NCBI GenBank assembly: GCA_016779705.1
Contig: JADHNB010000004.1
Coordinates: forward strand, 1-44,407
Reading direction: 5' to 3'
DNA from: Poseidonia sp.
GTDB lineage: Archaea; Thermoplasmatota; Poseidoniia; Poseidoniales; Poseidoniaceae
DNA: 44,407 nt
The first letter of the stretch is position 1, and each line of letters starts with the position of its first letter. Shown in pieces: positions 5,640 to 39,449 of the stretch. Below the pieces are notes generated by a model. The model was not told where the DNA came from. It did not search any database and saw only the letters and a list, made by a program, of their open reading frames with translations. A program made the position numbers and the translations under genes.

Positions 5640-5730
5640 GCGGCGTTTTCGCATCGGTGGCTTCATCAAGGGTTGCGTCAGCGGAAGGGTTGCTGTCCCC
5701 GGGGTTGGCCCCAGGAGAGTGGTGAGGACG

Positions 5731-7464
5731 ATGACCGAAAACGAGGCGAAGCGACCTGACGACGAGGACGAAGACGACGACTGGATGAAGTACGCCACCG
5801 CCAGTTTCGGCGAGACGGATTATTCCCTCTGGGACGACGTTGAGCCCGTTGAAGAGGACGAAGCCCATGCGGCGGAAGTGGCCATGCAGTTGGGCACCCA
5901 CGTCGAGGAAATTCCTCGCGCCCCCTCCGCGGCCGGTCACAAACATCTGGTTCGCGAGGGCACCTGCGACGCCTGTTTGGGTCGCGTCGGTGGCAAGCGT
6001 ATCTACGGCCAATCCTTCGAAGACGCCGGGGCTGGTGTTCGGGCCAGCGTGGTGGAGCAAGACCAGCACATGGCCAACGCTCGCAAGGCGGCCCCGCTGT
6101 GTCCGTTTTGCGAAAACTTGTTTGAAGAAGTCGACCTGTTGGCCGATATCATTCACGACGCCGTTGGACCCTATGACCTCACTCGGCTCCAGTTGGGCGC
6201 TCGATTTCCGAAGGACCAAACGGACACGGAGGAAGACCTTCGAAAGCGCTTGGGCGCTGGCGGTTCTGAACCCTTGAAATCGGCCCTCGTCGACCAGATT
6301 GGCGCCCGACTCAAGGACCGTTTGGACGGGGTCGCGATGGTTAACGACAAGCCCGACATTCTGGCGCTCATCGACGTGTTAACGCTCACCGTTGAATTGG
6401 ACGTGCGAGCGGTCTACGTGTACGGGCGCTACCGAAAATTGGAGCGCGGCATTCCCCAGACCCGTTGGCCTTGCCGAGCCTGCAAAGGACGCGGGTGCGA
6501 GCGCTGCGACCAAACGGGGCTGCAATACAAACGCAGCGTCCAAGACCTCGTGGGCAACCCGATGTTGGCGATCTTTGAGGGGACCGAGCACGCCTTCCAC
6601 GGCATGGGTCGTGAGGACATCGACGTTCGGTGTCTGGGACGGGGTCGTCCCTTCGTGTTGGAAATCAAGGAGCCAAAAAAGCGGGCGTTCAACGCCGAGA
6701 AGTTAGCGGAAATCATCAACGAAGCCGCCAACGGCTCGGTGGAGGTGTCGTCCATCCGCCCTTCGAGCCGAAGCGAAGTGGTGCGCATCAAGGACACGCC
6801 CGCCGAGAAATCCTACACGATTCGTTTCACCATTGAGCCGATGAGCGAAGCCGAATACGCCGTGCTCACCGCCCCGGTGGACATGACGAAGGAGGACGTG
6901 CAGGAACGCAGCAAGAAGCGACGGCGACAGCGTCGCGGCGACAAGGATGAGGACCGAACCAAGCCGCTGGCCACGCCCATCGACGTGCCCGCCACCGGTC
7001 CTAGCGAAGCGGAACTCAAGAGCATGAAGAAACCCGAATTGGTGGCCCTTTGCGAGACCCACGGGCTTGCCAAGACGGGGACGAAGGACGAATTGATTCA
7101 ACGCATCGTGGAAGCCTTGCCCCCTGCTCCGGCGATGTTGGACCTGCCCGACGACGAGACCATCCTCAAGGTCATCGAGGGCTTGAACGGCATCAAGCTG
7201 GCCCAGCGCACGCCCGACCGGGTGGCGCACCGTCGCTCCGACCTCATCCGTAAGCGGACCGTGTTTGAAGCCCACACGCCCTTCATCGAAATCAACGAGG
7301 ACGGGCAGCGGGAAATCGAATTCACCCTGCGTTGCGAATCGGGGACCTACGTCAAAGAAACGGTGCACGGCGACAACGGCCGCACCCAACCTTGCGTGGC
7401 AGCGCTCATCAAAGCCAAGTGCAACGTCCTCTGGTTGGACGTGGGTGACATCCACGCCGATTGA
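5731..7464 (+). CDS. pus10: tRNA pseudouridine(54/55) synthase Pus10 with inserted SAP domain
   Basis: CDACLGR and CPFC Zn ligands, YGRYRKLERGIPQTRWPC, HGMGREDIDVR catalytic motif, ESGTYVKE..HGDNGRT.P. Lies upstream of rpl21e. Confidence 0.95.
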   Translation: MTENEAKRPDDEDEDDDWMKYATASFGETDYSLWDDVEPVEEDEAHAAEVAMQLGTHVEEIPRAPSAAGHKHLVREGTCDACLGRVGGKRIYGQSFEDAGAGVRASVVEQDQHMANARKAAPLCPFCENLFEEVDLLADIIHDAVGPYDLTRLQLGARFPKDQTDTEEDLRKRLGAGGSEPLKSALVDQIGARLKDRLDGVAMVNDKPDILALIDVLTLTVELDVRAVYVYGRYRKLERGIPQTRWPCRACKGRGCERCDQTGLQYKRSVQDLVGNPMLAIFEGTEHAFHGMGREDIDVRCLGRGRPFVLEIKEPKKRAFNAEKLAEIINEAANGSVEVSSIRPSSRSEVVRIKDTPAEKSYTIRFTIEPMSEAEYAVLTAPVDMTKEDVQERSKKRRRQRRGDKDEDRTKPLATPIDVPATGPSEAELKSMKKPELVALCETHGLAKTGTKDELIQRIVEALPPAPAMLDLPDDETILKVIEGLNGIKLAQRTPDRVAHRRSDLIRKRTVFEAHTPFIEINEDGQREIEFTLRCESGTYVKETVHGDNGRTQPCVAALIKAKCNVLWLDVGDIHAD

Positions 7465-12741: not shown

Positions 12742-12796
12742 CGGCGAAACCGTCTTGCCCGATGCTTCAAGAACCCTTGACGGCCGTTGGGTGAAC

Positions 12797-14059
12797 ATGT
12801 CAGCGGGTCACGAAACGACGACCGGCCCGTTGCCCATCGGTCAATTCGCCCGTTTGGTTCAGCAAACGGTGAAGAGCGACCCGTTGTTTCAACACCAAGC
12901 CCTTCAGGGCGAGGTCTCGTCGTGGAACGTTCACAACGGCAACGTCTACTTCACGCTCCGGGACGATGAGGGGCAAATGGACTGCGTGATTTGGCGCAAC
13001 GCCCGGCTCTCGGTTGACCCTCGCATCGCCGTTGGCAGCGAAGTTGTCATCATTGGCAGCGTTGACCTTTGGCCCAAGAGAGGACGGTTGCAAATCGTCG
13101 TCGCCCGCATCCAACCGGTGCAAACGCTTGGCGCCATGGAGGAAGCCAAGCGGCAACTCATCGAGACGCTGCGGGCGGAAGGGGCGCTTGACCTCCCTTC
13201 GCGCCCCTTGCCGAAATTACCCAAGCACGTGGCCATCGTGACCGGGGCGGATTCGGCCGCTCTCTCGGACATGAAACGGTTGATGGCCGACCGCTGGCCG
13301 GAGATGCGAACCACCGTCATCGAAGTGCTCGTTCAGGGCGAGCACGCTGCGCAGCAGATCGTTCGCGGGTTGGCCGTGACGCGACAGCTCGCCCAACCCG
13401 ACATCGCCCAACGCCTCGGCCTGCCGCCGGTGGACGTGGTCATCGTGGGCCGAGGCGGGGGCTCGCCCGAAGACCTCTGGGCGTTCAACCTCGAACCGGT
13501 GGCCCGGGCCATCCTTGCCAGCACCGTCCCGGTCATTTCAGCCGTCGGCCACGAACAAGACCACCTCGTCTCGGACTTGGTGGCCGACGTTCGCGCCTCC
13601 ACGCCCTCGAACGCCATTGAACGGTTGGTGCCGGTGCGCCACGAGGTGGAGCAATGGTTTGACGAACTCGATGGACGCCTTTCCGCCGCCGTCAAACGTC
13701 GGTTGACCGAATGGCGTCAGCACCTCTCGCTGCTCACCAACCGCCTCAAGCACGCCCCGTCAAAGGGGTTGTTCCGTGCCAAAGAAGACCTTGGGCGGCT
13801 GAATCATCGCCTCCACCGAAGCCTTGAGTCGCGCATGGCGCAGGAACATCAGCGGCTGGCTCGCCTCCAAGCCACGCTGACCGCCGCCCACCCCAAACGG
13901 GTGTTGGAACGCGGCTACACCATGGCCCAGGACCACGAAGGACGCGTGGTGGCCAACATCGCTGGGCTCAGCGAAGGGCAAACCATCAGCCTTCAGTTCG
14001 CTGACGGGAGCGCTCACGCCGACATTCACACCATTGAACCAAAGGAGGACCCCGCATGA
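12797..14059 (+). CDS. xseA: Exodeoxyribonuclease VII large subunit
   Basis: N-terminal OB fold (GEVS...YFTLRD), GRGGGSPEDLWAFN, SAVGHEQD, ASTPS, VLERGY. Confidence 0.95.
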   Translation: MSAGHETTTGPLPIGQFARLVQQTVKSDPLFQHQALQGEVSSWNVHNGNVYFTLRDDEGQMDCVIWRNARLSVDPRIAVGSEVVIIGSVDLWPKRGRLQIVVARIQPVQTLGAMEEAKRQLIETLRAEGALDLPSRPLPKLPKHVAIVTGADSAALSDMKRLMADRWPEMRTTVIEVLVQGEHAAQQIVRGLAVTRQLAQPDIAQRLGLPPVDVVIVGRGGGSPEDLWAFNLEPVARAILASTVPVISAVGHEQDHLVSDLVADVRASTPSNAIERLVPVRHEVEQWFDELDGRLSAAVKRRLTEWRQHLSLLTNRLKHAPSKGLFRAKEDLGRLNHRLHRSLESRMAQEHQRLARLQATLTAAHPKRVLERGYTMAQDHEGRVVANIAGLSEGQTISLQFADGSAHADIHTIEPKEDPA

Positions 14060-14274
14060 CCGAAGAAATGACCTACGATGAAGCCCTACGACGACTGGAA
14101 GAACTGGTGAGCCAACTGGAGCGAGGTGGAAAAAACCTCGACGAAACGTTGGCCATGTTTGAAGAGGGCACGGCCCTGCTCAAGCGTTGTCAAAGCGAAC
14201 TGAGCGAAGTGGAAGGGCGACTGGCCGAATTGAACTTGGACGAAGCCGAAGCCTTGGTGAACGACGACCAATGA
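14056..14274 (+). CDS. xseB: Exodeoxyribonuclease VII small subunit
   Basis: TYDEALRRLEELVSQLE.G...LDETLAMFEEG..L.K.C. ATGA overlap with xseA. Confidence 0.93.
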   Translation: MTEEMTYDEALRRLEELVSQLERGGKNLDETLAMFEEGTALLKRCQSELSEVEGRLAELNLDEAEALVNDDQ

Positions 14275-14652: not shown

Positions 14653-15495
14653 TCATGCCACCGGCTGGACACGGGCGTGCACCGCCCGAAGCACGGCAAA
14701 GGCCGGCAACGACCAGCCAACCACCGCTACCAACCAAGCGATGAGGGAACCGAGCAGGACGCCAAAGGCGGGCAGCGACCACATGGCGACGTTGGCGTAG
14801 ACCGCCACGCTGGCGCCGCCCAACATCATCGGACCCGCTGCACCACGGGGGACGGTGGGGCCTTGGGCCAACCACAACGCCACCATGCTCGTGAGGAAAA
14901 TCGCTGGGAACACGCTGGCCAGTCCAGCGAGCAAGGGCTCGCCCAGGCCCGACAACCAAACGGCGACCCCGATGGCCAGCGCCGCCATCACCCCGCGTGC
15001 GAGCAGCACCTGTTTGGAAACCGATTTGCTCCCCTTGGGGGCGGGTTGGGGGCGAGCGTTGAACAACGCCACGACCACGAAGAGAAGGGCGAAGCCGGCC
15101 ACGGCAAGACGTCGTTCGGAGAGGTGAGCGTTGAGCACGTTCTCCACCGTCCAGAGCATCGTCAAACCCATCGCCACCCACAGCCCAAGCGCTGAGACGG
15201 TGGTGAACAGGAGCGGGTGAGACGATGTTTCGAACCAACGCGGCAGCACGAGCCAGGCGCCCAAAAACAAGGCGTTGAGCAACATCCCCAGCGGAACCAC
15301 CGACATGCTCGAGACAAGCGCTTCCTCGCCTCCCGCCAGGTACATGCCGATGCCGGCGGGAACAATGGTGGACGGGGCCGTGCCGAGCAGCCCGCCGATG
15401 AGGCCGCCCCACTTTTCGATGGCCACCGTCACCGCCGTGGCCACCACGCCGGCGAGGACCGCCGAGATCAGAATTGAGGTCAGCGCCAACCTCAA
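14653..15495 (-). CDS. Multi-pass membrane protein (DUF3147-like, internally duplicated)
   Basis: Very hydrophobic. The halves share GGLLGTAP and AGLASVFP motifs. Confidence 0.65.
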   Translation of the reverse strand: MRLALTSILISAVLAGVVATAVTVAIEKWGGLIGGLLGTAPSTIVPAGIGMYLAGGEEALVSSMSVVPLGMLLNALFLGAWLVLPRWFETSSHPLLFTTVSALGLWVAMGLTMLWTVENVLNAHLSERRLAVAGFALLFVVVALFNARPQPAPKGSKSVSKQVLLARGVMAALAIGVAVWLSGLGEPLLAGLASVFPAIFLTSMVALWLAQGPTVPRGAAGPMMLGGASVAVYANVAMWSLPAFGVLLGSLIAWLVAVVGWSLPAFAVLRAVHARVQPVA

Positions 15496-15824
15496 CCCTC
15501 CAACGCTTCCAACCGCTGCTCGAGCCGTTCCAGACGTTCTCCCGTCCAGTGCTCAACCGGTTCCCCGTTCACATAGAGCACGTTGAACGGAATGAAGTCG
15601 ATGTGCTCGGTCCAGGCATTCGCCGCTTTGAAGGCCGTGCCTTCTGGCGTGGTCAGGTCCAGCGTGTGGATGTCGAGCGGGCGAGGGGGTTGCCAGGCGG
15701 ACAAGGCGGCGTACCACGCCACGCAATCATCGCACGAAGGACGCCCGAGGACGAGAAGAGCCGGGCGTTCGGTGCCCAACGACCGTTCGATGTCGTCAAG
15801 CGGCGTCAGCAGCATGAGGCTCAC
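15492..15824 (-). CDS. Thioredoxin-fold protein
   Basis: RPSCDDC (CxxC) and FIPFNVLYVNGEPV cis-Pro/beta-hairpin pattern. Confidence 0.8.
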   Translation of the reverse strand: MSLMLLTPLDDIERSLGTERPALLVLGRPSCDDCVAWYAALSAWQPPRPLDIHTLDLTTPEGTAFKAANAWTEHIDFIPFNVLYVNGEPVEHWTGERLERLEQRLEALEG

Positions 15825-16619
15825 CTAAGCGTAGGATTGGCTGTTGATGACGTCTTGGAGCTCGATGACCTTGGCGTCACGACCTTTGGCATGGTCCGCT
15901 GCTCGGTTGAGGCGAGAACGCATCCAACCCAGCGTCATCATGCCTTTCATGGCGTTGATGGACTCGATGAAATGCATCGGGTTGCTGCCCAATTGGGCAT
16001 GGCTGCGGATGTCTTCCTCAAGGTCTTCCAGCACTTCGGCATAGAGGTCGAGCAACTCGTCCAACGCTTCCCGCGTGACGCCCATGCCGGCGATGCTTTT
16101 GGCCATGGACAACAAGGCCGTGGGAGTCAACAACCCTCCCGCCTGACTCGCCACAAATTCCTCGGCAGCGCTGGCCTCACCACCGTCTTGGCCTGCCTCA
16201 TCGTCCTCGGTGGGTTGGGTGTTGAGCACGGCTCGGTCCAGGTGGCGGGGTTTGATGGTGGCGACACGGTCGCGTTCGGCGGCTTCGGCGGCGTGACGAA
16301 GCAACTGGGCCAAATGCTGTTCGAGATGGTCAATGCCCGCTTGAACGGCGGCGGAGCCGACGGATTCCACGTGTGCGATGCGGTCGATCATCAATTCACG
16401 GGTCCGGTTGTAGTTCAACCGACTGCGCTGCGGGTCGTCAAGGGTCTTGCGTTCAGGGTCTTGGGACAGCGTTTGGGATTCCATCTGAGGCACCAATCGG
16501 TCAAGTTCCTCGCACAACAAGGTCACCAGCCGCTCCTTCACGTCACCGGAAAGACGCATGGTGGTGTAGTGGGCGGCCACCGCTGCGATGTGACTGGCGG
16601 AATAGGGCTTGGCGACCAT
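15825..16619 (-). CDS. Tandem histone-fold protein (at least two, probably three folds)
   Basis: L1/L2 motifs: RLSGDV...RKTLD, SVGSAA...AERDRVATIKPRHL, GVTREA...AKGRDAKVIELQDV. Confidence 0.75.
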   Translation of the reverse strand: MVAKPYSASHIAAVAAHYTTMRLSGDVKERLVTLLCEELDRLVPQMESQTLSQDPERKTLDDPQRSRLNYNRTRELMIDRIAHVESVGSAAVQAGIDHLEQHLAQLLRHAAEAAERDRVATIKPRHLDRAVLNTQPTEDDEAGQDGGEASAAEEFVASQAGGLLTPTALLSMAKSIAGMGVTREALDELLDLYAEVLEDLEEDIRSHAQLGSNPMHFIESINAMKGMMTLGWMRSRLNRAADHAKGRDAKVIELQDVINSQSYA

Positions 16620-16671
16620 GCGCCCCGTTGACCTCCTGCCGCCCTTGAATGATGTGGTGGGCAGACATGGC

Positions 16672-16935
16672 TCACTCGGTCAGGCCGTCGTCCCGACCCA
16701 AGACTTGGTTGAACTCCCAAGCATGGAGGCATTCGTGTCCGCCCAAAAAGCCGCCCGCTTCACGGGATGGCCCAATAAATTCGGCGCCGCACATGGAGCA
16801 GAACACGTTCACGATGAGTTCGTTGAAGTAGGTCCCGTTGGGGGTCTCCCGCTTTGGAATGCGTTTGCCCACGTCCTCGTGGGTCCACCCCGAAGTCTTC
16901 TCGCACACGTCTTCGCCTTGAACATCCTGTGTCAT
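16672..16935 (-). CDS. Small putative zinc-binding protein (CxxC...HxxxH)
   Basis: VFCSMCGAEF...GHECLH. Its ATG overlaps the TGA of the upstream peptidase (ATGA). Confidence 0.65.
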   Translation of the reverse strand: MTQDVQGEDVCEKTSGWTHEDVGKRIPKRETPNGTYFNELIVNVFCSMCGAEFIGPSREAGGFLGGHECLHAWEFNQVLGRDDGLTE

Positions 16936-18218
16936 GCATCCCACTCCATCACCCAAGGCAAGGCGCCGTCGGCCGTGATCGGGCGCATGCCGTCCTCATC
17001 TCGAACCCACGTGTCTTCGGTGCCCACGCTGCCTTCGCCGTAGACCACCTTCGGTTCAATGGCCATCGTCCCGCCCACCGGAAGCGGGCGGTCAAAGCCC
17101 ATTGCCACCACCGGCGACTCGTCCAGTTGCAAACCAATGGAATGGCCGAGGAAGCGACTTTGGTCGGGTTTGGTTCCCATCAGGTGGTCTTCGTAACCCA
17201 GGTCCTTGGCCAGCGCAAACCCGGCCTCCCAAGCTCGGCTGCAGTGCAACCCTTGGTCGAGCACGTCCACCACCTCTTCTTTGATGGTCAGCATGTCATC
17301 GAGGCGTTCTTGCCAAGCATCGCTTAGACGACCGGCCACGAACATGCGGGTGGTGTCCACCATGTACCCTCGATGGGCATGAACAAGGTCGACCAGCACG
17401 GGTTCACCCGCTTTGACCTTGGAAAAACCCGAACCCATGCCGCTGAGCGGATGGGGACCGGTGCCGCCGATGGCCGAGTCAAAGAACGATGGAATTCCAC
17501 CGGCGCGACCCGCGACGATGACGCCTCGGTCGCACTGAAGTGGGTAGCGGCGCATTTGGACCGTGCCGCCAAAGCCTTCGCTTCGGCTCACGGCTTCGGC
17601 CGCCGCCACCATGTCCAATTCGCTCACGCCCTCGCCGCCAACGGCCTGAACCGCCTCGAACATCCGAATTTGAATAGAGGCCCCGGTGTCCATTTGGTCA
17701 AGTTCCCACGCGGATTTGACTTCGCGCTGACGGTGCACGACGCCCGTGGCGTCGCCCGCCTCGCCCAACGAGGAAAGAGCGGCGGCGAACCGAGCGGAGA
17801 ACGAGGCCGGCGCTTCACCCAATTGCAGGGCTGGAGCTTCGGTCACGCCCTTGCTCTGGAGATGCTCGGCGAAGACGGAGAGTCGGGGAAAAGCCTCGAT
17901 GAGGTGCGGGGCATCGTCGTCACCGGCTTCCCAAACGGCTCGCTTGAGCGAGCGACGGACAAAGGCCACGGGGCCATCGCCGCCCGCCTCAACGCTGCCA
18001 CCCGCTCCCTTGGCGGGAACGAACAGCGTCCCGTCTTGGCGGCCGCCGGCGTAGTAGTAGAGGTCAACGGGGTGCTGGATGAGGGCCCCGGGCAAACCTG
18101 CTTCCTCGAGCATCTCGGCCAAACGAGCCTGACGAGCAGCCAACTCGGAGACCGGCACGCGCCAGTCCTCCCCTTCGGGGCCGATGAGATCGGTGGGCGC
18201 CCACTCGGTCATGTTCAT
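16932..18218 (-). CDS. Xaa-Pro peptidase (M24B family)
   Basis: LVDL, GYMVDTTR, GHSIGLQLDE, MAIEP and GTEDT metal ligands. Start 18218 or 18212. Confidence 0.92.
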   Translation of the reverse strand: MNMTEWAPTDLIGPEGEDWRVPVSELAARQARLAEMLEEAGLPGALIQHPVDLYYYAGGRQDGTLFVPAKGAGGSVEAGGDGPVAFVRRSLKRAVWEAGDDDAPHLIEAFPRLSVFAEHLQSKGVTEAPALQLGEAPASFSARFAAALSSLGEAGDATGVVHRQREVKSAWELDQMDTGASIQIRMFEAVQAVGGEGVSELDMVAAAEAVSRSEGFGGTVQMRRYPLQCDRGVIVAGRAGGIPSFFDSAIGGTGPHPLSGMGSGFSKVKAGEPVLVDLVHAHRGYMVDTTRMFVAGRLSDAWQERLDDMLTIKEEVVDVLDQGLHCSRAWEAGFALAKDLGYEDHLMGTKPDQSRFLGHSIGLQLDESPVVAMGFDRPLPVGGTMAIEPKVVYGEGSVGTEDTWVRDEDGMRPITADGALPWVMEWDA

Positions 18219-18262
18219 CGGTGACGGGCAACCGTTCAAAACCCGTTCGGCGGCACAGACCC

Positions 18263-19219
18263 TCAAGTGCGCATCGTCTCAAGTTGCCCTTGAGGGGTGG
18301 CGGCCAAGCGTTCCTCGGCGATGGCGCAATACTCGGGTGAAAGGTCCACACCAACGTAATGCCGTCCGTGCAATTTGGCCGCCACGCAGGTGGTGCCCGA
18401 GCCGTTGAAGGGGTCAAGGACGATGTCGCCGGCAAAGGTGTACATCTCAATGCAGCGTTTGGGCAATTCCACCGGGAAAGGCGCTGGGTGATTGACTCGA
18501 GACGCTCGTTCAGTGGCAAACGACCAGATGGACTTCGTGTGCTGAATGAAATCATCCCGTGGAATGGTATCCAGGCGCCCCGCTTCACGTTCATTTTTGC
18601 TACGGGGCAGTTTGTAGTCGCCTTTGGAGAACACGAGCAAATATTCGTGAACATCTCGCAAGCAGGGATTGGACGCCGATTGGAAGGACCCCCAAGCGCA
18701 CGACGAACCGGCGCTGGCGGATTTGTCCCAAACGATCTCCCCGCGCATCAAGAACCCGATTTCGGCCATGATGATGTTGATGTGGGACGACAACGGGATG
18801 TACGGCTTGCGGCCCAGGTTGGCCACGTTCACCACCATCCGCCCACCAGGGGTCAACACTCGGTAGCATTCTGCAAAGACCTCGTGGAGCAGGGTGAGGT
18901 ACTCCTTGAGCGAGAGGTCATCGTCGTATTCCTTCGAAGCGTTGTACGGGGGAGAGGTGACGACCAAGTGAACACAGTTGTCAGGAAGCGGCAGCGCCCG
19001 TGCATCGCCGCACACAACCGTGTCCAACCGTTCCTGGGGGAGGCCTTGGGCGGGGCCGACCTCGCGAGAACTGACCAAGCCTTCGTTGAGTCGGCTGGTG
19101 TAGTACAGGCTCGCATCGTGACCCTCTCGCCTTGACACGCCGAACGCTGAGGTCGCGGTTGAGGCACGCCGACGGGCCCCCTCCAGAGGAGCCTTGTCGT
19201 TTGGCGGTGCATCGGCCAT
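18263..19219 (-). CDS. Site-specific DNA methyltransferase, N4-C/N6-A beta class
   Basis: LVVTSPPY catalytic motif comes before HPAPFP and VLDPFNGSGTT. Confidence 0.93.
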   Translation of the reverse strand: MADAPPNDKAPLEGARRRASTATSAFGVSRREGHDASLYYTSRLNEGLVSSREVGPAQGLPQERLDTVVCGDARALPLPDNCVHLVVTSPPYNASKEYDDDLSLKEYLTLLHEVFAECYRVLTPGGRMVVNVANLGRKPYIPLSSHINIIMAEIGFLMRGEIVWDKSASAGSSCAWGSFQSASNPCLRDVHEYLLVFSKGDYKLPRSKNEREAGRLDTIPRDDFIQHTKSIWSFATERASRVNHPAPFPVELPKRCIEMYTFAGDIVLDPFNGSGTTCVAAKLHGRHYVGVDLSPEYCAIAEERLAATPQGQLETMRT

Positions 19220-19360
19220 GGGGACGAAGGGCTTCGCGGGCCTTATCACCTTTCGCGCCCTTCACCGGCCGGTGACGCGCGTTGTGCGACCCCACGCCGA
19301 CGAGCGCGCCCCATGAACTCGGAGCGAGGAATCAAAAACCGTGCGCTCGTGGGGAGGCCA

Positions 19361-20620: not shown

Positions 20621-20623
20621 AGG

Positions 20624-20696
20624 AGCCACTGGGGAGACTCGAACTCCCGACCTTCTGATTACGAATCAGATGCTCTACCAACTAAGCCACAGTGGC
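20624..20696 (-). tRNA. tRNA-Thr(CGT)
   Basis: GCCACTG acceptor stem, TCTGA-TTCGTAA-TCAGA anticodon arm, GTTCGAGTC T-arm. CCA not encoded. Confidence 0.95.
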
Positions 20697-23780: not shown

Positions 23781-26700
23781 TCAGTCCTCATCAGACGTTC
23801 GCTTCACGGCCCGACGCTTGACGGGCGCCTTGCGGGGTGCCGGTCGACGACCAACGGCTCGACGGACAGGCTTCTTCGTTGCCTCATCGTCGTCATCATC
23901 GTCGTCGTCATCTGCGTCGTCGTCGTCATCGTCGTCGTCGTCGTCATCGTCGTCATCCGGTTCCTCATCCTTCTTCTTGCGGCGGCGTTCTTTACGCTGA
24001 ACAATGTTGATGGCGAAGGGGTCGTCATCGTCCTCTTTTGGAGCCGATTTCGCCTCCTCCTTCTTTTCCTCGTTTTCGGCAGGGGCTGCGGCGGCACCGG
24101 TTCCGGTGACGGCGTCCATGTCAAGGTCTTGGCTGGTGCCAATGAATTCCGACATCCACGATTCATCGTCTTCATCATCGTCGCCCCGCTTCTTCTTCTT
24201 TGGCCCCGACATGCCCACTTGGATGATCATCAAGGAAACGACGATGGCCAAGAGGTTCACCACAGCGATGACCCACACGATCACGTACGGCGGGTCGGCA
24301 AAGCCTGGCGTGATGGTCTCGGGTTCCACCGGAGGCTTGAGGTCCTCCTCGTAATTGCAGACGGTGGTCCCGTCCAAGCGGTTTCGGCAGAAATCCACGA
24401 TGAATTCCACGCGCTTCTGAACTTCGTTGCCGGCACCGTCGGTGGCTCGTACGGTGATGGCGTGCTTGCCGGCCTCAAAGTTCCCGGCGGTCACCTCCAT
24501 GTTGGCGGACAAGGAGCGGTTGTTGCCTTCCAAGTCGGTGATGCCGGTCAAGTCGGCCCAAGGCGTGGACACGGGCGAACCCGTCAAGCCGCCGTAGTGG
24601 TAGGTGAACCGGTACTGGAACGAGGTGATGACAACGTCGTCGGTGGCGCCCGCCAGCACGTTGATTCGGTTACCGTAGAGGTACTTCGAGCCGTCAGAAG
24701 CCGGCGTGGGCGAGAAGATGTTCACCACGGGGAGTTGGGCATCGATGGAGAGGTGTCCCCAGGATTGGACAACCACGTTGCTGGACTCGTCTTCCATGGT
24801 AACCCGAACGACCATGTCGCCCGCATCGGTGTTGGCGAGGATGCTGAAATCGTAGGTGTAAAGTGGCCCGATGTTGGGGTTGTTGCGGTTGTCGTTGAGC
24901 ACCGCCAGCGGTTCTTCGTCGTTGGTCAGAACGCCGCCGGTCAAGGTGGTGATGTTGATGGTGGGGGTGGTGCCGAGGTCCTCGTTGACCTGGACGCGGA
25001 GGCTGTATTGTCCGGCCACCAGCGTGGTGCTGTCATACGGAGCACCGTCACCATCCACCACGGTCAGGGTGGCGTTGGGCAGGAGCGTGTCCTCAGCGAC
25101 CTTGAAGGCGTTTCCACCAAAGCCAGCAAAGATTTCACCGTTGAAATTGCCCCATTCGTCGGTGATGGTCACAGCGTACCACACGTTTCGGTCAACATCG
25201 CTGGGGATGGTGAACTCACGGGTGATGGTATCGCCGGTTTCCACGGTGGTTTCGATGGTGTCAAGCACCGATTCCCATCCGTCCGATTCAATGGTGGACA
25301 AGTCGTTCTCATCCTCACCAAAGGGCGCCCCGTAATGGCGCCAAATGGCGTATGTTTCGTTGGCTTCGTCCTCGTTAAACCACTCGAGGCTCACGAGGTT
25401 CATCGAACCGATGGAATAGGCGTTCTTGATCCGGGGAGGATTGGGAGCCAAGGTGTCTTCAAACGGCACTTGGAAATAATTCTGAATGAGGTTGGTGTAG
25501 TGATAGGTCCCGTTAACGTTGCCATAAAGGGCTTCAGACGTGACCCAATAGAAGGAGTTCGTCCGGTACACATCGGCGGGGACTTCGGCGTCGAAGTAAC
25601 CAACGCCGTCGCTCACGGTTCCCAAATAAATGAGGGTCTCGTTTTCAACGAACTGACCGGTGTTGACGCGGTAGGTGGAATACCAAACGTGGTAGATCTC
25701 ACCTTCAATGCCCAGCTGGTCGTTCCAGGTGACGCGGGTGGTGCGGTCACCGATGAATTCAGCGTGGACGTTGGTTGGCTCGGCGACCCAACCGTAGAAG
25801 GCGTTCTCCTCGATGGCGTTGGTGCAAGAATCACCGGTGGTGTCGGTGTTGATGACGCCGGTGGCGTCCACCGTCACCACGCAGTAGTACGAATAGCCGA
25901 GGAAGCCTTGCGGAACCTGGACTTGGTAGGAGTTGATGCCTTCCAGAATGCCAGACACGACCAGTTCAACGTCGTTGCGCAAGACCGTGACAAAGGGTTG
26001 GTCCGAGCGGTAGACGCGATAGGTTTCACCCGTTTCGGCGGCGACATCGCCCCAACTGATGTTGGTGTACCCCGTGCCATCGAGTGGGTTGGGCACGAAT
26101 TCCGCCGAAAGCAGGATGGGTTGGTCAGGAGGATTGTTGTCTTCGGTCACCGGACCGACCGTGTTCTGGCCTACGAACCGAAGGTCCTCGTAATCTTGCC
26201 CGGCGCCAAACCAATTTGGTAGGTAGTACGTGATGGAATAGTAACTCTCCTGTTGGGTGCTGGGCGGAATGTCAACGACGTAGGACGTGTTGGTGGCGTC
26301 CACCACGGCGATGGGTGTTGCGGTGATGGGCAGGAACACGCCGTTGCTGCGGTCAATGGGGTAAGACGTCTGCCAAATCCGAATTTGCAAGGCATCGGGG
26401 CCAGTCGTGGGGTGGACCGCCTGGATGGAGTTGTAATTCAACCAGTTCAGCGTGGTTTGGCTCGTTGTAGGGTCAAAAAGAGCCGAGATGATGAAGGGCG
26501 TTTGAACCGGCTGGGTGATTTCCTGAACCGGCGTGTAGAGGTGCGACCCGTTGAAGAGGAATTCAGCGGCTTCCGTACCGTTGGACAACGAGGTCGTGAT
26601 GGCGTAGTAAAACGAGCCGTTGGTGCCCGGGGAGACGGGATATTCCACGATGTGTCCCGGATGGGCGTTTTCGTCACAGTTCATCGGGTTGCCACCGGCC

Positions 26701-27035
26701 GATCCCGAATCGCAGGCCGCCACCGTCATGAAGGGCGTCAACGAAGCGAGGTTTGAAGCGTTGATGATGGAGGTGTGGCGGTAGACGTTGTAGGTGGCGC
26801 TGAACAAGGCGTTGAGCACGTTGATGTTGGTGGATTCCAGATTCGTCCACGTGATGGTGGTGGTTTCCGTGGCGACATCAAAGGTGGCGTTGATGTGTTG
26901 CGCTTGCAAGTTGGAGGGTGTGCCGAGGTTTGCATCGGCCGCTGAGGGGGTGACCGGCGCCAAGGCGAGCAGCATCACCGCAACGAGAAAGACGGCGCGC
27001 AAAGTTCCGTTTTGTTCAGCCGTAGGACTACCCAT
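23781..27035 (-). CDS. Large cell-surface protein: signal peptide, about 5 FN3-like and Ig-like domains, C-terminal TM, charged tail
   Basis: Repeated xxxW...Y.(V/I)(Y/W)...YY.(I/V)T pattern, GKHAITVRATDGAGN Ig motif, many N-x-S/T sequons. Confidence 0.85.
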   Translation of the reverse strand: MGSPTAEQNGTLRAVFLVAVMLLALAPVTPSAADANLGTPSNLQAQHINATFDVATETTTITWTNLESTNINVLNALFSATYNVYRHTSIINASNLASLTPFMTVAACDSGSAGGNPMNCDENAHPGHIVEYPVSPGTNGSFYYAITTSLSNGTEAAEFLFNGSHLYTPVQEITQPVQTPFIISALFDPTTSQTTLNWLNYNSIQAVHPTTGPDALQIRIWQTSYPIDRSNGVFLPITATPIAVVDATNTSYVVDIPPSTQQESYYSITYYLPNWFGAGQDYEDLRFVGQNTVGPVTEDNNPPDQPILLSAEFVPNPLDGTGYTNISWGDVAAETGETYRVYRSDQPFVTVLRNDVELVVSGILEGINSYQVQVPQGFLGYSYYCVVTVDATGVINTDTTGDSCTNAIEENAFYGWVAEPTNVHAEFIGDRTTRVTWNDQLGIEGEIYHVWYSTYRVNTGQFVENETLIYLGTVSDGVGYFDAEVPADVYRTNSFYWVTSEALYGNVNGTYHYTNLIQNYFQVPFEDTLAPNPPRIKNAYSIGSMNLVSLEWFNEDEANETYAIWRHYGAPFGEDENDLSTIESDGWESVLDTIETTVETGDTITREFTIPSDVDRNVWYAVTITDEWGNFNGEIFAGFGGNAFKVAEDTLLPNATLTVVDGDGAPYDSTTLVAGQYSLRVQVNEDLGTTPTINITTLTGGVLTNDEEPLAVLNDNRNNPNIGPLYTYDFSILANTDAGDMVVRVTMEDESSNVVVQSWGHLSIDAQLPVVNIFSPTPASDGSKYLYGNRINVLAGATDDVVITSFQYRFTYHYGGLTGSPVSTPWADLTGITDLEGNNRSLSANMEVTAGNFEAGKHAITVRATDGAGNEVQKRVEFIVDFCRNRLDGTTVCNYEEDLKPPVEPETITPGFADPPYVIVWVIAVVNLLAIVVSLMIIQVGMSGPKKKKRGDDDEDDESWMSEFIGTSQDLDMDAVTGTGAAAAPAENEEKKEEAKSAPKEDDDDPFAINIVQRKERRRKKKDEEPDDDDDDDDDDDDDDADDDDDDDDDEATKKPVRRAVGRRPAPRKAPVKRRAVKRTSDED
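23886..23957 (-). repeat. Imperfect (GAY)n trinucleotide tract encoding D14-A-D9
   Basis: 24 codons read directly: 23 GAC/GAT and one GCA. Confidence 0.95.
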
Positions 27036-27122
27036 CAACGCATATGTAGCCTTCGTCCGTTATGACTATGTCGCTTTGAGGGTGTCAAAAATCCCGATAC
27101 ACGGCCGTTTTTGAGGTCGCCA

Positions 27123-29293: not shown

Positions 29294-29371
29294 TGGTAGC
29301 GAGGGATGGATTTGAACCATCGATCTCCGGGTTATGAGCCCGACGGGATATCCAGACTACCCCACCTCGCT
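29294..29371 (-). tRNA. tRNA-Met(CAT), initiator type, CCA encoded
   Basis: AGCGAGG...CGGG-CTCATAA-CCCG...GGTTCAAATCC...CCTCGCTACCA. A1-U72 pair and three G-C pairs in the anticodon stem. Confidence 0.95.
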
Positions 29372-35634: not shown

Positions 35635-36000
35635 ATGTCCCGCTCCTACGACGCCCGTTGGGTCAGCATCAAGGGGGCCCAAGAACGGAAATGGTGGATT
35701 CGAGCCAAGGCCAAAATTGACACGGGAGCCAAGCGTTGCTCCATTGACCAAGGCCTCGCTGAAGCCTTGGGATTGCCCGTCGTGGGCGAAGTCAAGGTTC
35801 GAAACGCCATGGGAAGCCAGGAGCGAAACGTCGTGTTGGCCAACGTTCGCGTGGGACGCATCACCTACAAAGTTGAGATGACTGTGGCCGACCGGAGCCA
35901 GTTGAAATGCCCCATGCTGTTGGGCAAAACCTTCCTCGATGAATTGGCCAAGCAACCGCTGAAACCCAACCGAAAAGGCGGCGTGCCTCAGTTCGTTTGA
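35635..36000 (+). CDS. Retropepsin-like aspartic protease (RimK/LysX-associated family)
   Basis: AKIDTGAKRCSID and ADRSQLKCPMLLGKTFL. Confidence 0.85.
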   Translation: MSRSYDARWVSIKGAQERKWWIRAKAKIDTGAKRCSIDQGLAEALGLPVVGEVKVRNAMGSQERNVVLANVRVGRITYKVEMTVADRSQLKCPMLLGKTFLDELAKQPLKPNRKGGVPQFV

Positions 36001-39000
36001 GAGCCAAGCCACGGCTTCAACGTTCGGTTGTTCTTGGTGACGCCAAAGCCAAACCGCTCTTCGATGGCCCGGTCAAGCAACGTGAAATCGCCGTCCATCG
36101 TGGCGACCAGCACGGCGCCGATATCGGGCAACGGCAACGAGGAAAGGTGCATGGCAAGCCGGTAGATGTCAAGATCGGTGGACTCGGGATAGATGGCTTG
36201 GCCTTCGAGTTCGGTTCGGACGGTGACGGAACGCAATTCCTTGAGTTGCGTGAGCTCCTCAAACACCTCGCTGTGATGCAGGAGGAACGCTTCAAGCGCT
36301 TGGGAGGACTCGGGAACATCGGCCAACATTTCGCTGGTCGGCGTCCACGTGGTGAACTCGTTGAGCACGTCCTTCACCAATTCACTCATGACCTCCGAGT
36401 TGAGGGTTTGTTCGATGCTTGCCATGTCGATCATTGCCCCCTTGAACCGATGCATCAAGCGTTGGTCCTTGGCGATCAAGCGGAGTTCACCCCGAACGTC
36501 GTCAGGGATCATCAAATGGAGACGCTTCGCTTTGGCGTGGTGAAGCAAAATGTGGTGGAACCGATTCGAACCCATCATCGTCAAATTGGTTTCAAAGATG
36601 AGGTTCATGCGCTGGAACATCTTCTCCACCAAGGCGTCGACGAGGACGTTCGTGTCCATGATCACCAAAGGCTTGAGCGAAAGGTTGTGGAGGAAACGAC
36701 GCTTCGAGGTGGGAATCTCGTCTTTGTACATCGAAAACAAGGACTGCTCCACCATCGAAAGGCGCTTGAGGGACGTGATGGAAAATTTCGGTGAATTTTG
36801 AGCTCGTTCCAAGTACATCAAGCCCTCGAAGGCGCCGTCTTCGGCGGCGTTCTTGGCGATCTCGTACACTTCGTCAAGCGAGGGAGACAGGCTCATCATG
36901 GCTTGTCGGAATTGATGTTCGAACTGGGTCCGAGTGCGGCGCAGGTCCCGACTGATGTGGGTTGAGGCAGCCGTCACCCGTCCAAGGAACGGCTCTGGAG
37001 GCAACAAATGGGCTTGCTCGAAGGGATAATTGCGGAGCAAATCCAATTCTTCTTCGTTGTACACCGTCTTGGTGCGTTCAACAAGGTTGCCCTCCACGTC
37101 TTCTTCGGTGACGGTGATGCGTTGTTGAACGTGCTTACGAATCAATCGAGCGGCTTCATTGGTGTCCTCGGAGGCTTTGTGACACACTCGGAGGTAGAGT
37201 TTGAACCGCTCCGTGATGGCGGTTTTGAGAGAGGGCACCTTGTCGAGCAGGTCCACCGCTTCGGCCCATGACGTGGCGTGGGCGTAATGAATCAAGGATT
37301 TTCGATAAAGGGCCAGCGGGAGAGCCAGGGCGGAGTCGTCATCGTCGGATTCCACCGCCACGTCGGAGCGTTCGGCGGTTTCGCCTCGGACCTTGGTGAA
37401 CACTTCAGCCGCTCGGGAGTATTCCCGGGCTGAATTGAGCTCATCCCCGTTGGCCGCATAGAGGGCGGCACGGGTCAGCGGCGCCCAAGGAGAAAGCGGG
37501 TCGTGTTGTTGGTACCACATCACCAGATTGGGGAGCCCCAAATCGTGTTCCATCACGAGATGTGACACGGAACTCACCAGTCGGAGCGGGAAGCCGGACC
37601 GTGCGACAAGGTCGTCGAGTTGGGTCGCACGCTCAGGGTTGGCCATGCCGATGCTGTACGCCTGCAGGTGACCGTTCACGGACAAGGTCATGATCATCAC
37701 CTCAAACAAGCGACGTTCGACGGCCGACAGGTCAAGGTCATCAAGGCCGTTGCTCAGATTGTTCAGATGCGTTTCACTGACCACACCGCCTTCAGCAATC
37801 GCCCGGCTGATGGGTGAGAAAGCCTTCAACGCACTCTTGTTCAACACCTCGACCAGTTCAGGCGTTTCCTTGTAAATGCCTTCCATCAACAACAGAAGGT
37901 GCTCGGCCACGGGCGAGAGGACTTCAGGAAGTTCGGCACCGTGAATGGCTTGCAAGGCCTGACGACGGCTGTTGAAAATGTTCGAGCGATGCTTGGCACC
38001 CACCGAGGAGGGCGCCAACTGAGCGATCAAGAGCGCCGCATACGGATGCTGCATGGCCAGCATGCTGTCGTTGGAAAACACGGTCGCCAAGCGTTCGATG
38101 TCCAGGGCATCGAGCAGAAGGGTGAGCACCGATGATTTGATCTCGTCCCAAAAAGACCCGGGTTCATCGCACAGGCGGCGTGCAGCGGTCAACCGAAGCG
38201 AGGCCTCCAGTTCAGGAGTTTGAACGACACGGAGCAGCGCCTGCTCGTCCACGTCGTTCATAAAACCCATCAACCAAGCGTTGGCTCGATCATCGTTCAT
38301 GGAAACGACCAGCGGCAGCAAATCGGTCACGTCAGAAGAACCGTCCAAGCGCAGGCCACCGAGAACCTCCATGGCTCCATCTTGCTCGCCTTCTCGGAGC
38401 AGGGCGGTCAGTCGCCACCACGTCAATCGGTCTCTACCTTCGTGCACGTTGGCGGCCTTGAGCAGCGCAAGTCCCTTTTCCAGTTCAGCCGAAGGAGACG
38501 CTTCGGCCTCGGCGGGCGCATGTTGCCAAGCCAGCGTTTGGAGAGCGACCGTGAGCGAATCGTCTTTCGAACTCGCCACAAGGTTGGACCAATCGTTGAT
38601 TTGCCCCAATTGCAGCGCTTGGAAATTCATCAGTGCAGCGCAAAGGTCTGCGTCTTCGCCTTCGCACGCCTTCACGACGGAAGCCGGAGGCTCATCCCGG
38701 TTGTGAACATGAAGCAGATAGGTCACGAAGGCCAGCGGTCCTTTGAGTTGAAGCAACGAGTCGTCCAAGGTGACGGACCGGCCGCCCGTGAGTTGCTTGG
38801 TCGCCTTCTGCAACGCCACCTTGGTATCGGGGTCGTCCACCCCGGCGGTGGCCAATTTCAAGACGGTGGCCAGCGCTTCTCGATCTCGTGGGTCGACCCA
38901 GAAAAATTCGGTTGAGAGTTGGCTTTTGGTAGTGGACTTGGCAACCTTCGCTTTGGGGAACGCCAAAAACTGGCCCAACAGGGGCGTCTTTTCACCGATC

Positions 39001-39449
39001 AAATGCCATACCGGATGGACGCCTTTGGCCATGCAGGTCTCTCGGAGCGTCGTTTCGTTGACGTTCCATGCCTCGTCCCAATCATCAGCGTTCAACTGTT
39101 TGTGAATCAAGAGGGTGGCCAACTGGTAGGCGGTGGTGTAGGGAGCCTCGTTGACGATCTCCTCGGGTTTATGCAGCCAGGTCATGTACGACGGCCCGGA
39201 ACTCCGACCGGTCCGCCGAGCACGTCCGCGAGGGCGAGCCATGGCGGGTCGTCGCTGATTGGAACCGTCATCATCGTCTTCGGCGGCTGGTGGCTCCAAC
39301 TCATGGGCTGCAACGCACAACACCGCCATGAGCGGTTTGTCAAACATTTTTGAGGCCGCTTCTCGGTTCATCGTGGCGACCCGCGCATTACCCGCCATGG
39401 GCTTGGAAAACGCTGCCTTGAGACAGGTTTCCATGTGCGTTTCGTCCAA
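35988..39449 (-). CDS. Large alpha-helical protein with C-terminal PIN domain
   Basis: LVIMDTNVLVD, V.GEL, ESTDLDIY, LVATMDGDF. Start uncertain (39449 or 39434). Confidence 0.8.
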   Translation of the reverse strand: MDETHMETCLKAAFSKPMAGNARVATMNREAASKMFDKPLMAVLCVAAHELEPPAAEDDDDGSNQRRPAMARPRGRARRTGRSSGPSYMTWLHKPEEIVNEAPYTTAYQLATLLIHKQLNADDWDEAWNVNETTLRETCMAKGVHPVWHLIGEKTPLLGQFLAFPKAKVAKSTTKSQLSTEFFWVDPRDREALATVLKLATAGVDDPDTKVALQKATKQLTGGRSVTLDDSLLQLKGPLAFVTYLLHVHNRDEPPASVVKACEGEDADLCAALMNFQALQLGQINDWSNLVASSKDDSLTVALQTLAWQHAPAEAEASPSAELEKGLALLKAANVHEGRDRLTWWRLTALLREGEQDGAMEVLGGLRLDGSSDVTDLLPLVVSMNDDRANAWLMGFMNDVDEQALLRVVQTPELEASLRLTAARRLCDEPGSFWDEIKSSVLTLLLDALDIERLATVFSNDSMLAMQHPYAALLIAQLAPSSVGAKHRSNIFNSRRQALQAIHGAELPEVLSPVAEHLLLLMEGIYKETPELVEVLNKSALKAFSPISRAIAEGGVVSETHLNNLSNGLDDLDLSAVERRLFEVMIMTLSVNGHLQAYSIGMANPERATQLDDLVARSGFPLRLVSSVSHLVMEHDLGLPNLVMWYQQHDPLSPWAPLTRAALYAANGDELNSAREYSRAAEVFTKVRGETAERSDVAVESDDDDSALALPLALYRKSLIHYAHATSWAEAVDLLDKVPSLKTAITERFKLYLRVCHKASEDTNEAARLIRKHVQQRITVTEEDVEGNLVERTKTVYNEEELDLLRNYPFEQAHLLPPEPFLGRVTAASTHISRDLRRTRTQFEHQFRQAMMSLSPSLDEVYEIAKNAAEDGAFEGLMYLERAQNSPKFSITSLKRLSMVEQSLFSMYKDEIPTSKRRFLHNLSLKPLVIMDTNVLVDALVEKMFQRMNLIFETNLTMMGSNRFHHILLHHAKAKRLHLMIPDDVRGELRLIAKDQRLMHRFKGAMIDMASIEQTLNSEVMSELVKDVLNEFTTWTPTSEMLADVPESSQALEAFLLHHSEVFEELTQLKELRSVTVRTELEGQAIYPESTDLDIYRLAMHLSSLPLPDIGAVLVATMDGDFTLLDRAIEERFGFGVTKNNRTLKPWLGSQTN

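Follow-up and report, generated by a model that had tools for sequence, protein, structure and literature searches.

The closest described relatives of the gene considered here are the "acidic quadruplets", cluster 5 of the survey by Laursen & Luger (Nat Commun 2026;17:5254, PMC13260811; preprint 10.1101/2025.06.26.661778, June 2025), in which archaeal histones were gathered with the Pfam models PF00125 and PF00808 at liberal stringency and clustered. As set out in Table 1 and the account of cluster 5 in that paper, the cluster comprises 130 sequences with medians of 262 aa for length, 5.2 for isoelectric point (pI) and -0.35 for grand average of hydropathy (GRAVY); its members have four predicted histone-fold motifs, are exclusive to Poseidoniales and are always the sole histone gene of their genome. 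The AF3 predictions described there pair the N termini of these proteins within the chain and the C termini between chains as histone-fold dimers. The gene that we analyse lies on the minus strand of a 44,407-nt stretch of Poseidonia sp. contig JADHNB010000004.1 (the window) and encodes a 264-aa protein (29.1 kDa) that, by the homology described below, is an orthologue of this published family: its length, pI (5.15) and GRAVY (-0.38), all computed from the translation, match the cluster medians. An earlier note on this DNA, made from the letters alone, had supposed that related multiplets might already figure in histone surveys, and so they do. The discovery of the family belongs to others; what the window adds is an orthologue and anatomical detail rather than a new kind of system. 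The present analysis contributes four points: the two halves of the chain are recognisable as duplicates, the C half having undergone coordinated deletions; conserved basic residues are found almost only in the N half; both halves are under strong selection (dN/dS ~0.07-0.11), as against the paper's phrase "not well conserved"; and the gene has a conserved upstream element and a conserved neighbourhood.

Poseidoniales (Marine Group II, MG-II), which have not been cultured, rank with the most abundant archaea of the plankton; the family bears on the question of how they organise their DNA. A 2014 comparative genomics study (PMC4153887), in the statement that bears on this point, describes Thermoplasmata relatives, MG-II included, as lacking eukaryotic-like histones, and MG-II as having Alba; in the corresponding part of Hocher et al. 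(PMC7613761), MC1 is reported in most MG-II. The earlier note had viewed the protein against Thermoplasmatales relying on HU-like proteins, a frame that does not fit an organism of MG-II, a group reported to carry MC1 and Alba. Set against the 2014 statement, a much-modified histone-fold protein is retained throughout Poseidoniales under strong purifying selection. Term searches of main texts find "Poseidon" neither in the 2024 prokaryotic histone survey (PMC11390915) nor in the 2026 review of double histone folds (PMC13088155), and neither "duplication" nor "MC1" in PMC13260811 (0 occurrences each).

The assignment to the published family is carried by a 262-aa ORF on contig DUJJ01000204.1, with which the protein is identical at 159 of 263 positions (60 %, E 2e-113) and which, from the contig accession, we infer to be the published representative DUJJ01000204.1_9; it is because of this identity that we speak of an orthologue. 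The other marks of cluster 5 are also present: detection at liberal stringency, the physical medians already mentioned, four motifs (partial in units 1, 3 and 4) and locus titles that name Poseidoniales as the only order. A scan of 57 other ORFs of the window found no match to a histone, MC1 or Alba model.

The minus-strand ORF is a real, conserved gene. Its G+C by codon position (0.65/0.42/0.74) resembles that of the adjoining genes, in a window with 59.6 % G+C whose other genes are archaeal (Pus10 with an archaeal THUMP domain, phosphoglycerate kinase (PGK), FtsZ). The three motifs on which the earlier note built its reading are where it had put them: RKTLD at aa 57-61, RVATIKPRHL at aa 118-127 and AKVIELQDV at aa 249-257.

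Alignments and models together describe the protein as two tandem pseudo-dimers separated by an acidic linker that is predicted to be disordered (Table 1). The full-length AlphaFold2 model, built on an alignment of 33 family members that are 21-89 % identical to the query, has a mean pLDDT of 76 and a pTM of 0.40. Its helices are those given in Table 1, the long helix of unit 4 being divided there into 214-228 and 231-246; pLDDT falls below 50 throughout aa 136-162. Modelled alone on 23 sequences, the C-terminal domain reaches a pLDDT of 78.6 and a pTM of 0.67, with a single helix at 214-246. Both models have the same intrachain L1-L2 beta bridge, between 180-181 and 251-252, and in the N half the order of the helices fits a handshake doublet. 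In these models only unit 2 is a complete three-helix fold: units 1 and 3 are without alpha3, and unit 4 is without L1 and half of alpha2. The earlier note had counted three histone-fold units. That the chain is made of several histone-fold-derived units stands, the count does not: there are four, unit 2 alone having the canonical three helices. The "long insertion" of the supposed third fold, which the note had suspected of being a degenerate fourth, is just that in truncated form, in the alignment of the two halves as well as in the AlphaFold2 models.

Table 1. Position of the histone-fold gene, its parts and its surroundings in the window
Feature	Position	Strand	Details
Acidic quadruplet histone-fold gene	15825..16619	minus	264 aa; ATG 16619-16617, TAG 15827-15825; from the ORF list
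Unit 1 (aa 1-62)	16434..16619	minus	alpha1 8-15, L1, alpha2 25-53, L2 with canonical R57-K58-T59; no alpha3; AlphaFold2, invariant columns
Junction and unit 2 (aa 63-135)	16215..16433	minus	complete; alpha1 70-80, alpha2 89-116, alpha3 124-134; profile, Pfam, Foldseek
Acidic linker (aa 136-162)	16134..16214	minus	predicted disordered; pLDDT < 50
Unit 3 (aa 163-212)	15984..16133	minus	alpha1 166-177, L1 with beta bridge 180-181, alpha2 183-209; RKT-type L2 deleted (8-aa gap)
Unit 4 (aa 213-264)	15828..15983	minus	truncated; helix 214-246 (alpha1 and C-terminal half of alpha2), L2 with bridge 251-252, alpha3 254-259
Conserved upstream element ACCACATCATTCAAGG	16643..16658	minus	within the 52-nt gap before the histone gene; TTCAA ~30 nt 5' of ATG
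Six co-directional genes	14653-19249	minus	4-nt overlaps or abutting, one 52-nt gap; histone-fold gene fourth
N6/N4 DNA methylase	18263-19249	minus	first of the six
M24 peptidase	16932-18266	minus	second; syntenic in 77/80 loci
87-aa Cys/His ORF	16672-16935	minus	CxxC...HxCxH; ATG overlaps M24 stop (ATGA); 52 nt between its end and the histone gene
110-aa ORF	15492-15824	minus	C-D-D-C (thioredoxin-like CxxC); GTG start abuts histone stop; 49/80 loci
280-aa membrane protein	14653-15495	minus	last of the six; syntenic in 71/80 loci
tRNA-Thr (CGT)	20622-20696	minus	
tRNA-Met (CAT)	29294-29371	minus	

By profile statistics, unit 2 (aa 67-135) is the sole detectable histone fold. The whole protein matches PF00125 (E 0.0034, 18.1 bits) and PF00808 (E 0.046, 14.4 bits), both over aa 67-131, and no NCBIfam family; cut into segments, it yields one match, aa 63-136 with PF00125 (E 5.7e-4, 20.6 bits). 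All these single-sequence scores are below the Pfam gathering cut-offs (26.4 bits for PF00125, 21.4 bits for PF00808), as is to be expected because cluster 5 itself was found at liberal thresholds only. The segment-by-segment histone HMM check proposed in the earlier note came out positive for unit 2 and for no other. The profile of the 33 family members finds a H2B-H2A.Z chimera (E 5.3e-7) and archaeal HmvA (E 6.9e-7) in the PDB, with further matches ranging to 1e-3; the histone matches (H2A/H2A.Z, HmvA) are confined to query aa 57-146, their best stretches being 71-136. When the 33 are scanned singly at E <= 1, PF00125 is matched by 29 and PF00808 by 25. The RVATIKPRHL segment (L2/alpha3) of unit 2 is H2A-like. 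A specific eukaryotic (H2A) ancestry of the unit was considered and rejected, archaeal HmvA scoring equally well (32.4 bits, against 23.8-31 for H2A domains), and so was a viral one, the viral structure library giving no match at E <= 0.001.

The histone-fold nature of units 1, 3 and 4 is accepted because of internal homology, the helix patterns of the AlphaFold2 models and weak Foldseek matches. With the full-length model, Foldseek finds its best matches in unit 2, to chains of H2A (64-66 columns, 32-33 % identity) and to the archaeal histone HPhA (TMt 0.89, rmsd 1.4). For the C-domain model the best is HMk (1F1E; TMq 0.67, E 0.078, 12 % identity, rmsd 7.7), the second the histone domain of SOS (Son of Sevenless; 1Q9C; TMq 0.58-0.67, E 0.09-0.37, 13-15 % identity), with the single-chain H2A-H2B 7vcl (TMq 0.72) and then AAA+ lid domains also appearing; these matches to pseudo-dimers are weak (E 0.08-0.4). 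In the AlphaFold-plus-Foldseek check that the earlier note had called for, histone doublets are among the best C-domain matches, none of them at E <= 0.001. A search of the ESM Atlas with aa 160-264 gives scores of 0.91-0.92 for the protein's own family and 0.84 for a cluster of 145-aa archaeal histone-domain proteins, the latter being a lead only.

Canonical archaeal histones have a complete alpha1-L1-alpha2-L2-alpha3 fold with an R-K-T motif in L2 and an Arg-Asp clamp. No unit of the protein combines a complete fold with both: unit 1 has RKT at 57-59 and is without alpha3; unit 2 is complete and has V119-A120-T121 and H126. (The motif names are as in PMC13260811.) At 264 aa, with a pI of 5.15 and a PF00808 score below cut-off, the protein is also far from the basic ~70-aa singlet that PF00808 typifies.

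The alignment of the two halves with each other argues that they are paralogues and that the chain arose by duplication of a doublet. Compared by hhalign, the N half (aa 1-136) and the C half (aa 160-264) align over 94 columns, at a probability of 93.6 % and with a score of 44.4. Reversed alignments score 12.0, 40 column shuffles 12.1 +/- 2.7 (maximum 21.0) and 40 shuffles of seven-column blocks 18.0 +/- 4.5 (maximum 41.2); repeated with an alignment of 128 sequences, the comparison scores 43.9, while the highest of 30 shuffles reaches 18.8. Unit 1 aligned with unit 3 reaches 92.8 %. Two stretches of the N half have no counterpart in the C half: 8 residues with the RKT loop of unit 1 (unit 3 thus being without an RKT-type L2), and another ~20 equivalent to L1 of unit 2 plus the N-terminal half of its alpha2. 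Mapped on the predicted fold, both deletions would seem to fall at the same end of the pseudo-dimer, one of its two L1-L2 sites having been lost as a unit. The fused pseudo-tetramer proposed in the earlier note is borne out by the duplication and the AlphaFold2 models in this particular form, two tandem pseudo-dimers, and its reading as a whole is partly supported.

The family is populous and, as far as titles name a lineage, confined to Poseidoniales. A word-indexed search of 5.8 billion proteins produced 3426 candidates, of which 350 clusters pass E <= 0.001. In the best 120 of the 350, 113 are 259-281 aa long and the other 7, at 153-241 aa, cover 58-69 % of the query; source names, where present among the clusters listed, are Poseidonia, Poseidoniaceae or Euryarchaeota, and JGI labels some "histone H3/H4". 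For 10 distant relatives, too, the labels of cluster members go no further than "Poseidoniaceae" and "histone H3/H4". Exhaustive phmmer search with the whole protein through 1.84 billion representatives of 50 % clusters gave 73 proteins at E <= 0.001. Judged by their lengths and matched ranges, these look like full-length relatives or pieces of the family, and none, read in that way rather than one by one, shows itself as a canonical singlet histone. Among GTDB genomes, one for each species, relatives are encoded in 261 of the 344 candidate stretches. From the 261, a set of 80 loci was kept, all at least 57 % identical and close kin; the titles of 55 name Poseidonia, Poseidoniaceae or Poseidoniales, those of the other 25 only "Euryarchaeota", "Methanobacteriota archaeon" or "uncultured euryarchaeote", with another order named in none of the 80 titles.

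Selection on the protein is strong and uneven. Rough Nei-Gojobori estimates (45 pairs from 10 sequences, with synonymous sites near saturation) make the N-terminal doublet (aa 1-135) the best conserved part, with a dN/dS of ~0.07; aa 163-260 come next at 0.11, and the linker stands at 0.32. Over the 80 loci the histone-fold protein has a median identity of 68 %, PGK one of 67 % and the M24 peptidase one of 75 %; the histone-fold protein diverges at the pace of its housekeeping neighbours. The linker is conserved in character: aa 136-160 contain 0 K/R and 8 D/E (net -8), and in 128 full-length homologues its net charge is -2 to -11 (median -8), its length 20-36 aa and its majority fraction 0.43. 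The acidic linker and acidic protein of the earlier note are thus as described. Against this background the region of unit 2 (aa 63-135) is basic, with a pI of 9.95, and the conserved basic residues are distributed very unequally. Fourteen positions are K or R in at least 90 % of the 128 homologues, and 12 of them are in aa 1-125: K4, R22, K28, R57, K58, R65, R67, R72, R74, R118, K123 and R125. The C half has K174 and R234 only. Alignment with its partner makes the C-terminal doublet a shrunken copy that seems to have lost one of two L1-L2 ends, that lacks nearly all conserved basic residues, and that is still under purifying selection.

In the structures of HMfB and of the nucleosome, a histone dimer contacts DNA at L1, at L2 and before alpha1. 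We take the conserved basic residues of the N-terminal doublet to occupy these same contact sites. On that assumption the doublet (aa 1-135) would bind DNA as one histone dimer, with putative contacts from R22 in L1, R57-K58-T59 in L2, R65, R67, R72 and R74 ahead of alpha1 of unit 2, and R118, T121, K123 and R125. Polymerisation through four-helix bundles at both ends would be excluded because unit 1 is without alpha3, and the protein would then bind or bend DNA locally without wrapping it, or act as a regulator. The acidic linker may fold back on to the basic ridge and shield it or tune its binding, and the C-terminal doublet might serve self-association or the binding of a partner. The best overall explanation that we can offer, a cluster 5 orthologue built of two tandem pseudo-dimers whose N-terminal doublet is a non-polymerising DNA binder, stands in our estimation at about an even chance of being right; it draws on sequence, models and analogy.

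A number of points weigh against that explanation. Units 1, 3 and 4 are silent in the per-segment Pfam scan; the profiles of unit 1 and of the C-terminal domain, searched against the PDB, find as their best matches unrelated proteins (E 0.31 and 0.23, respectively); and Foldseek, with the full-length and C-domain models against the PDB and in the viral library, gives nothing at E <= 0.001. The HMMER alignment and comparison with HmvA place V119-A120 of unit 2 where archaeal histones have R-K, and H126 where they have the Asp of the clamp. The pTM of the full-length model does not fix the relative placement of the halves. The protein is acidic as a whole, and remains so among the 128 homologues (pI 4.75-6.17). 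The mapping of basic residues relies on the known HMfB and nucleosome structures rather than on a computed complex. The AF3 work reported for cluster 5 in PMC13260811 yielded neither four-helix-bundle assemblies nor a nucleosome-like complex with DNA, and has the C termini pairing between chains, where our monomer models have an L1-L2 bridge within the chain; the Discussion of that paper allows that cluster 5 histones "might not bind DNA".

That published suggestion is a serious rival, and we grant it a substantial chance, short of what we would call probable. It would have the histone folds co-opted as a scaffold or adaptor between proteins, in the manner of the SOS histone domain or of TAF-like pairs, with an acidic surface that binds basic partners such as MC1, Alba or the product of a neighbouring gene. 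The low pI in the window and throughout the family speaks for it, and so do the SOS histone domain and AAA+ lid domains among the structural matches of the C domain. The nucleoid proteins MC1 and Alba are reported for MG-II in the portions of PMC7613761 and PMC4153887 cited above, and 61 of the 80 loci have a conserved gene for an 87-aa Cys/His protein at a distance of 52-58 nt upstream. What tells against it is the placing of the conserved basic residues, which cluster at L1, L2 and the N termini of alpha1 helices, positions that we assign to the DNA contacts of known histone structures, with 12 of 14 in the N-terminal doublet and the canonical RKT among them; unit 2, moreover, is basic. Synteny is general among these closely related genomes and points to no partner, and in MGIIa-L1-like loci the 87-aa gene is absent from its position while the histone gene is kept.

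DNA binding by the N-terminal doublet can also be elaborated into a self-contained, auto-regulated mini-chromatin unit, in which the C-terminal doublet would dock on the N-terminal doublet or on a second chain to make a tetramer-like particle, the linker acting as a DNA mimic or chaperone that gates binding. We consider this improbable. If true, it would be a working histone in a lineage described, in the statement of PMC4153887 already quoted, as without eukaryotic-like histones, and a cellular counterpart of the viral quadruplets, of independent origin through duplication of a doublet.

Still harder to sustain is the proposition that the chain is a pre-assembled tetramer wrapping ~60 bp, alone or stacked, and the main packaging protein of Poseidoniales, which we regard as very unlikely. 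Four histone-fold-derived units in one chain would suit it; PMC13260811, in its account of cluster 5, makes this the sole histone gene of these genomes; the gene is universal among Poseidoniales, to judge by the 261 relatives in 344 candidate stretches from one genome per species; and viral quadruplets are reported to assemble nucleosomes (in the relevant part of the review PMC13088155). Against it, unit 1 lacks alpha3, unit 4 lacks L1 and half of alpha2, and the C half has only 2 of the 14 conserved K/R positions. The model offers no confident packing of the halves (pTM 0.40), the AF3 predictions reported for cluster 5 in PMC13260811 are without four-helix-bundle assemblies or nucleosome-like particles, and similarity to viral doublets is not significant (best E 0.012, 10-18 % identity). 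Finally, that the gene is a chance ORF in GC-rich DNA and the true gene the longer, 385-aa ORF that overlaps it on the plus strand (15474-16631) has next to no chance: the idea is refuted by the conservation data, 350 homologous clusters sharing length and start (M-x-AKPY) and dN/dS being ~0.1 in the minus-strand frame, where the histone profile matches also lie, whereas the plus-strand ORF is without Pfam match and its codon-position G+C mirrors that of the real frame. The 385-aa ORF is antisense to both the histone-fold gene and its downstream neighbour, a shadow ORF of the sort typical of GC-rich DNA.

The histone-fold gene is a member of a co-directional cluster (Table 1) whose order is conserved across Poseidoniaceae loci, and has its own conserved upstream element nonetheless. 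In 55 of the 77 loci that could be used, TTCAA is located at -31 to -29 relative to the ATG, and the block ACCACATCATTCAAGG is a putative TATA/BRE-like promoter whose transcript would be leaderless or nearly so. A GGAGGT placed 12 nt before the ATG suggested a Shine-Dalgarno sequence; this was dropped, the sequence not being conserved in 22 other loci inspected. Relatives of the 87-aa protein at the upstream position are 70-99 % identical; the protein is represented by 87 clusters in the protein database, named only "hypothetical" and assigned to Poseidoniaceae or Euryarchaeota, and its Cys/His pattern might be that of a small zinc-binding protein. Pfam has no match for it, nor for the 110-aa ORF at E <= 0.05. 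Next to the cluster and divergent from it are genes for the exonuclease VII subunits XseA and XseB (12755-14274, plus strand), syntenic with the histone gene in 69 and 71 of the 80 loci, respectively. Exonuclease VII is mainly a bacterial system. A function for the histone-fold protein was not to be had from this neighbourhood and the attempt was given up: linkage is uninformative because the 80 loci are closely related (identity no lower than 57 %) and the histone gene keeps pace in divergence with the genes around it.

Elsewhere in the window, the Pus10 pseudouridine synthase (5719-7464, plus strand) contains a SAP domain, either inserted or appended (PF02037, E 3e-10, aa 433-467). SAP is a DNA/RNA-binding motif, mostly eukaryotic. 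Two very large minus-strand ORFs, of 1085 aa (23781-27038) and 1153 aa (35988-39449), have no Pfam matches or sub-threshold Ig-like ones and may be surface proteins.

If the N-terminal doublet does bind DNA, it would be a natural example of a histone that does not polymerise and regulates itself, with a bearing on the evolution of histone doublets and of obligate heterodimers. Set beside the published cluster 5, the protein differs in nothing essential and is a further orthologue from a Poseidonia-like genome. HMk of Methanopyrus kandleri likewise has two folds in one chain as an intramolecular pseudo-dimer; the present protein is predicted to have two such doublets in tandem, each incomplete, and the match, although the best for the C domain, is weak, as the values already given indicate. 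The SOS histone domain, too, is a two-fold pseudo-dimer in a single chain, with a role outside chromatin; it is part of a eukaryotic signalling protein, and from so weak a match we claim no homology. The fused histones of Marseilleviridae and relatives (doublets, quadruplets) share the principle of several folds in one chain, and Marseillevirus histone-like doublets are the best matches in the viral structure library BFVD (E 0.012-0.03, 10-18 % identity), none reaching E <= 0.001; in contrast to H2B-H2A plus H4-H3 types, the halves of the present protein are paralogues of each other. Unit 2 aligns with H2A/H2A.Z and HmvA from alpha1 to alpha3 and has the I-x-P-R-H-L start of alpha3 in common with H2A, while the equal score of HmvA leaves specific eukaryotic ancestry without support. 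HpyA and HstA, the acidic histones of halophiles, are described in the pertinent part of PMC10128011 as of low abundance, non-essential, and binding DNA at discrete sites rather than packaging it. They are ~143-aa doublets of a salt-in cytoplasm, as compared with a 264-aa quadruplet of marine plankton, and the likeness is one of reasoning only; like them, however, the present protein is acidic, multi-fold and, going by what is published of cluster 5, the sole histone of its genome, and by that analogy HpyA and HstA would be the favoured model of how it functions.

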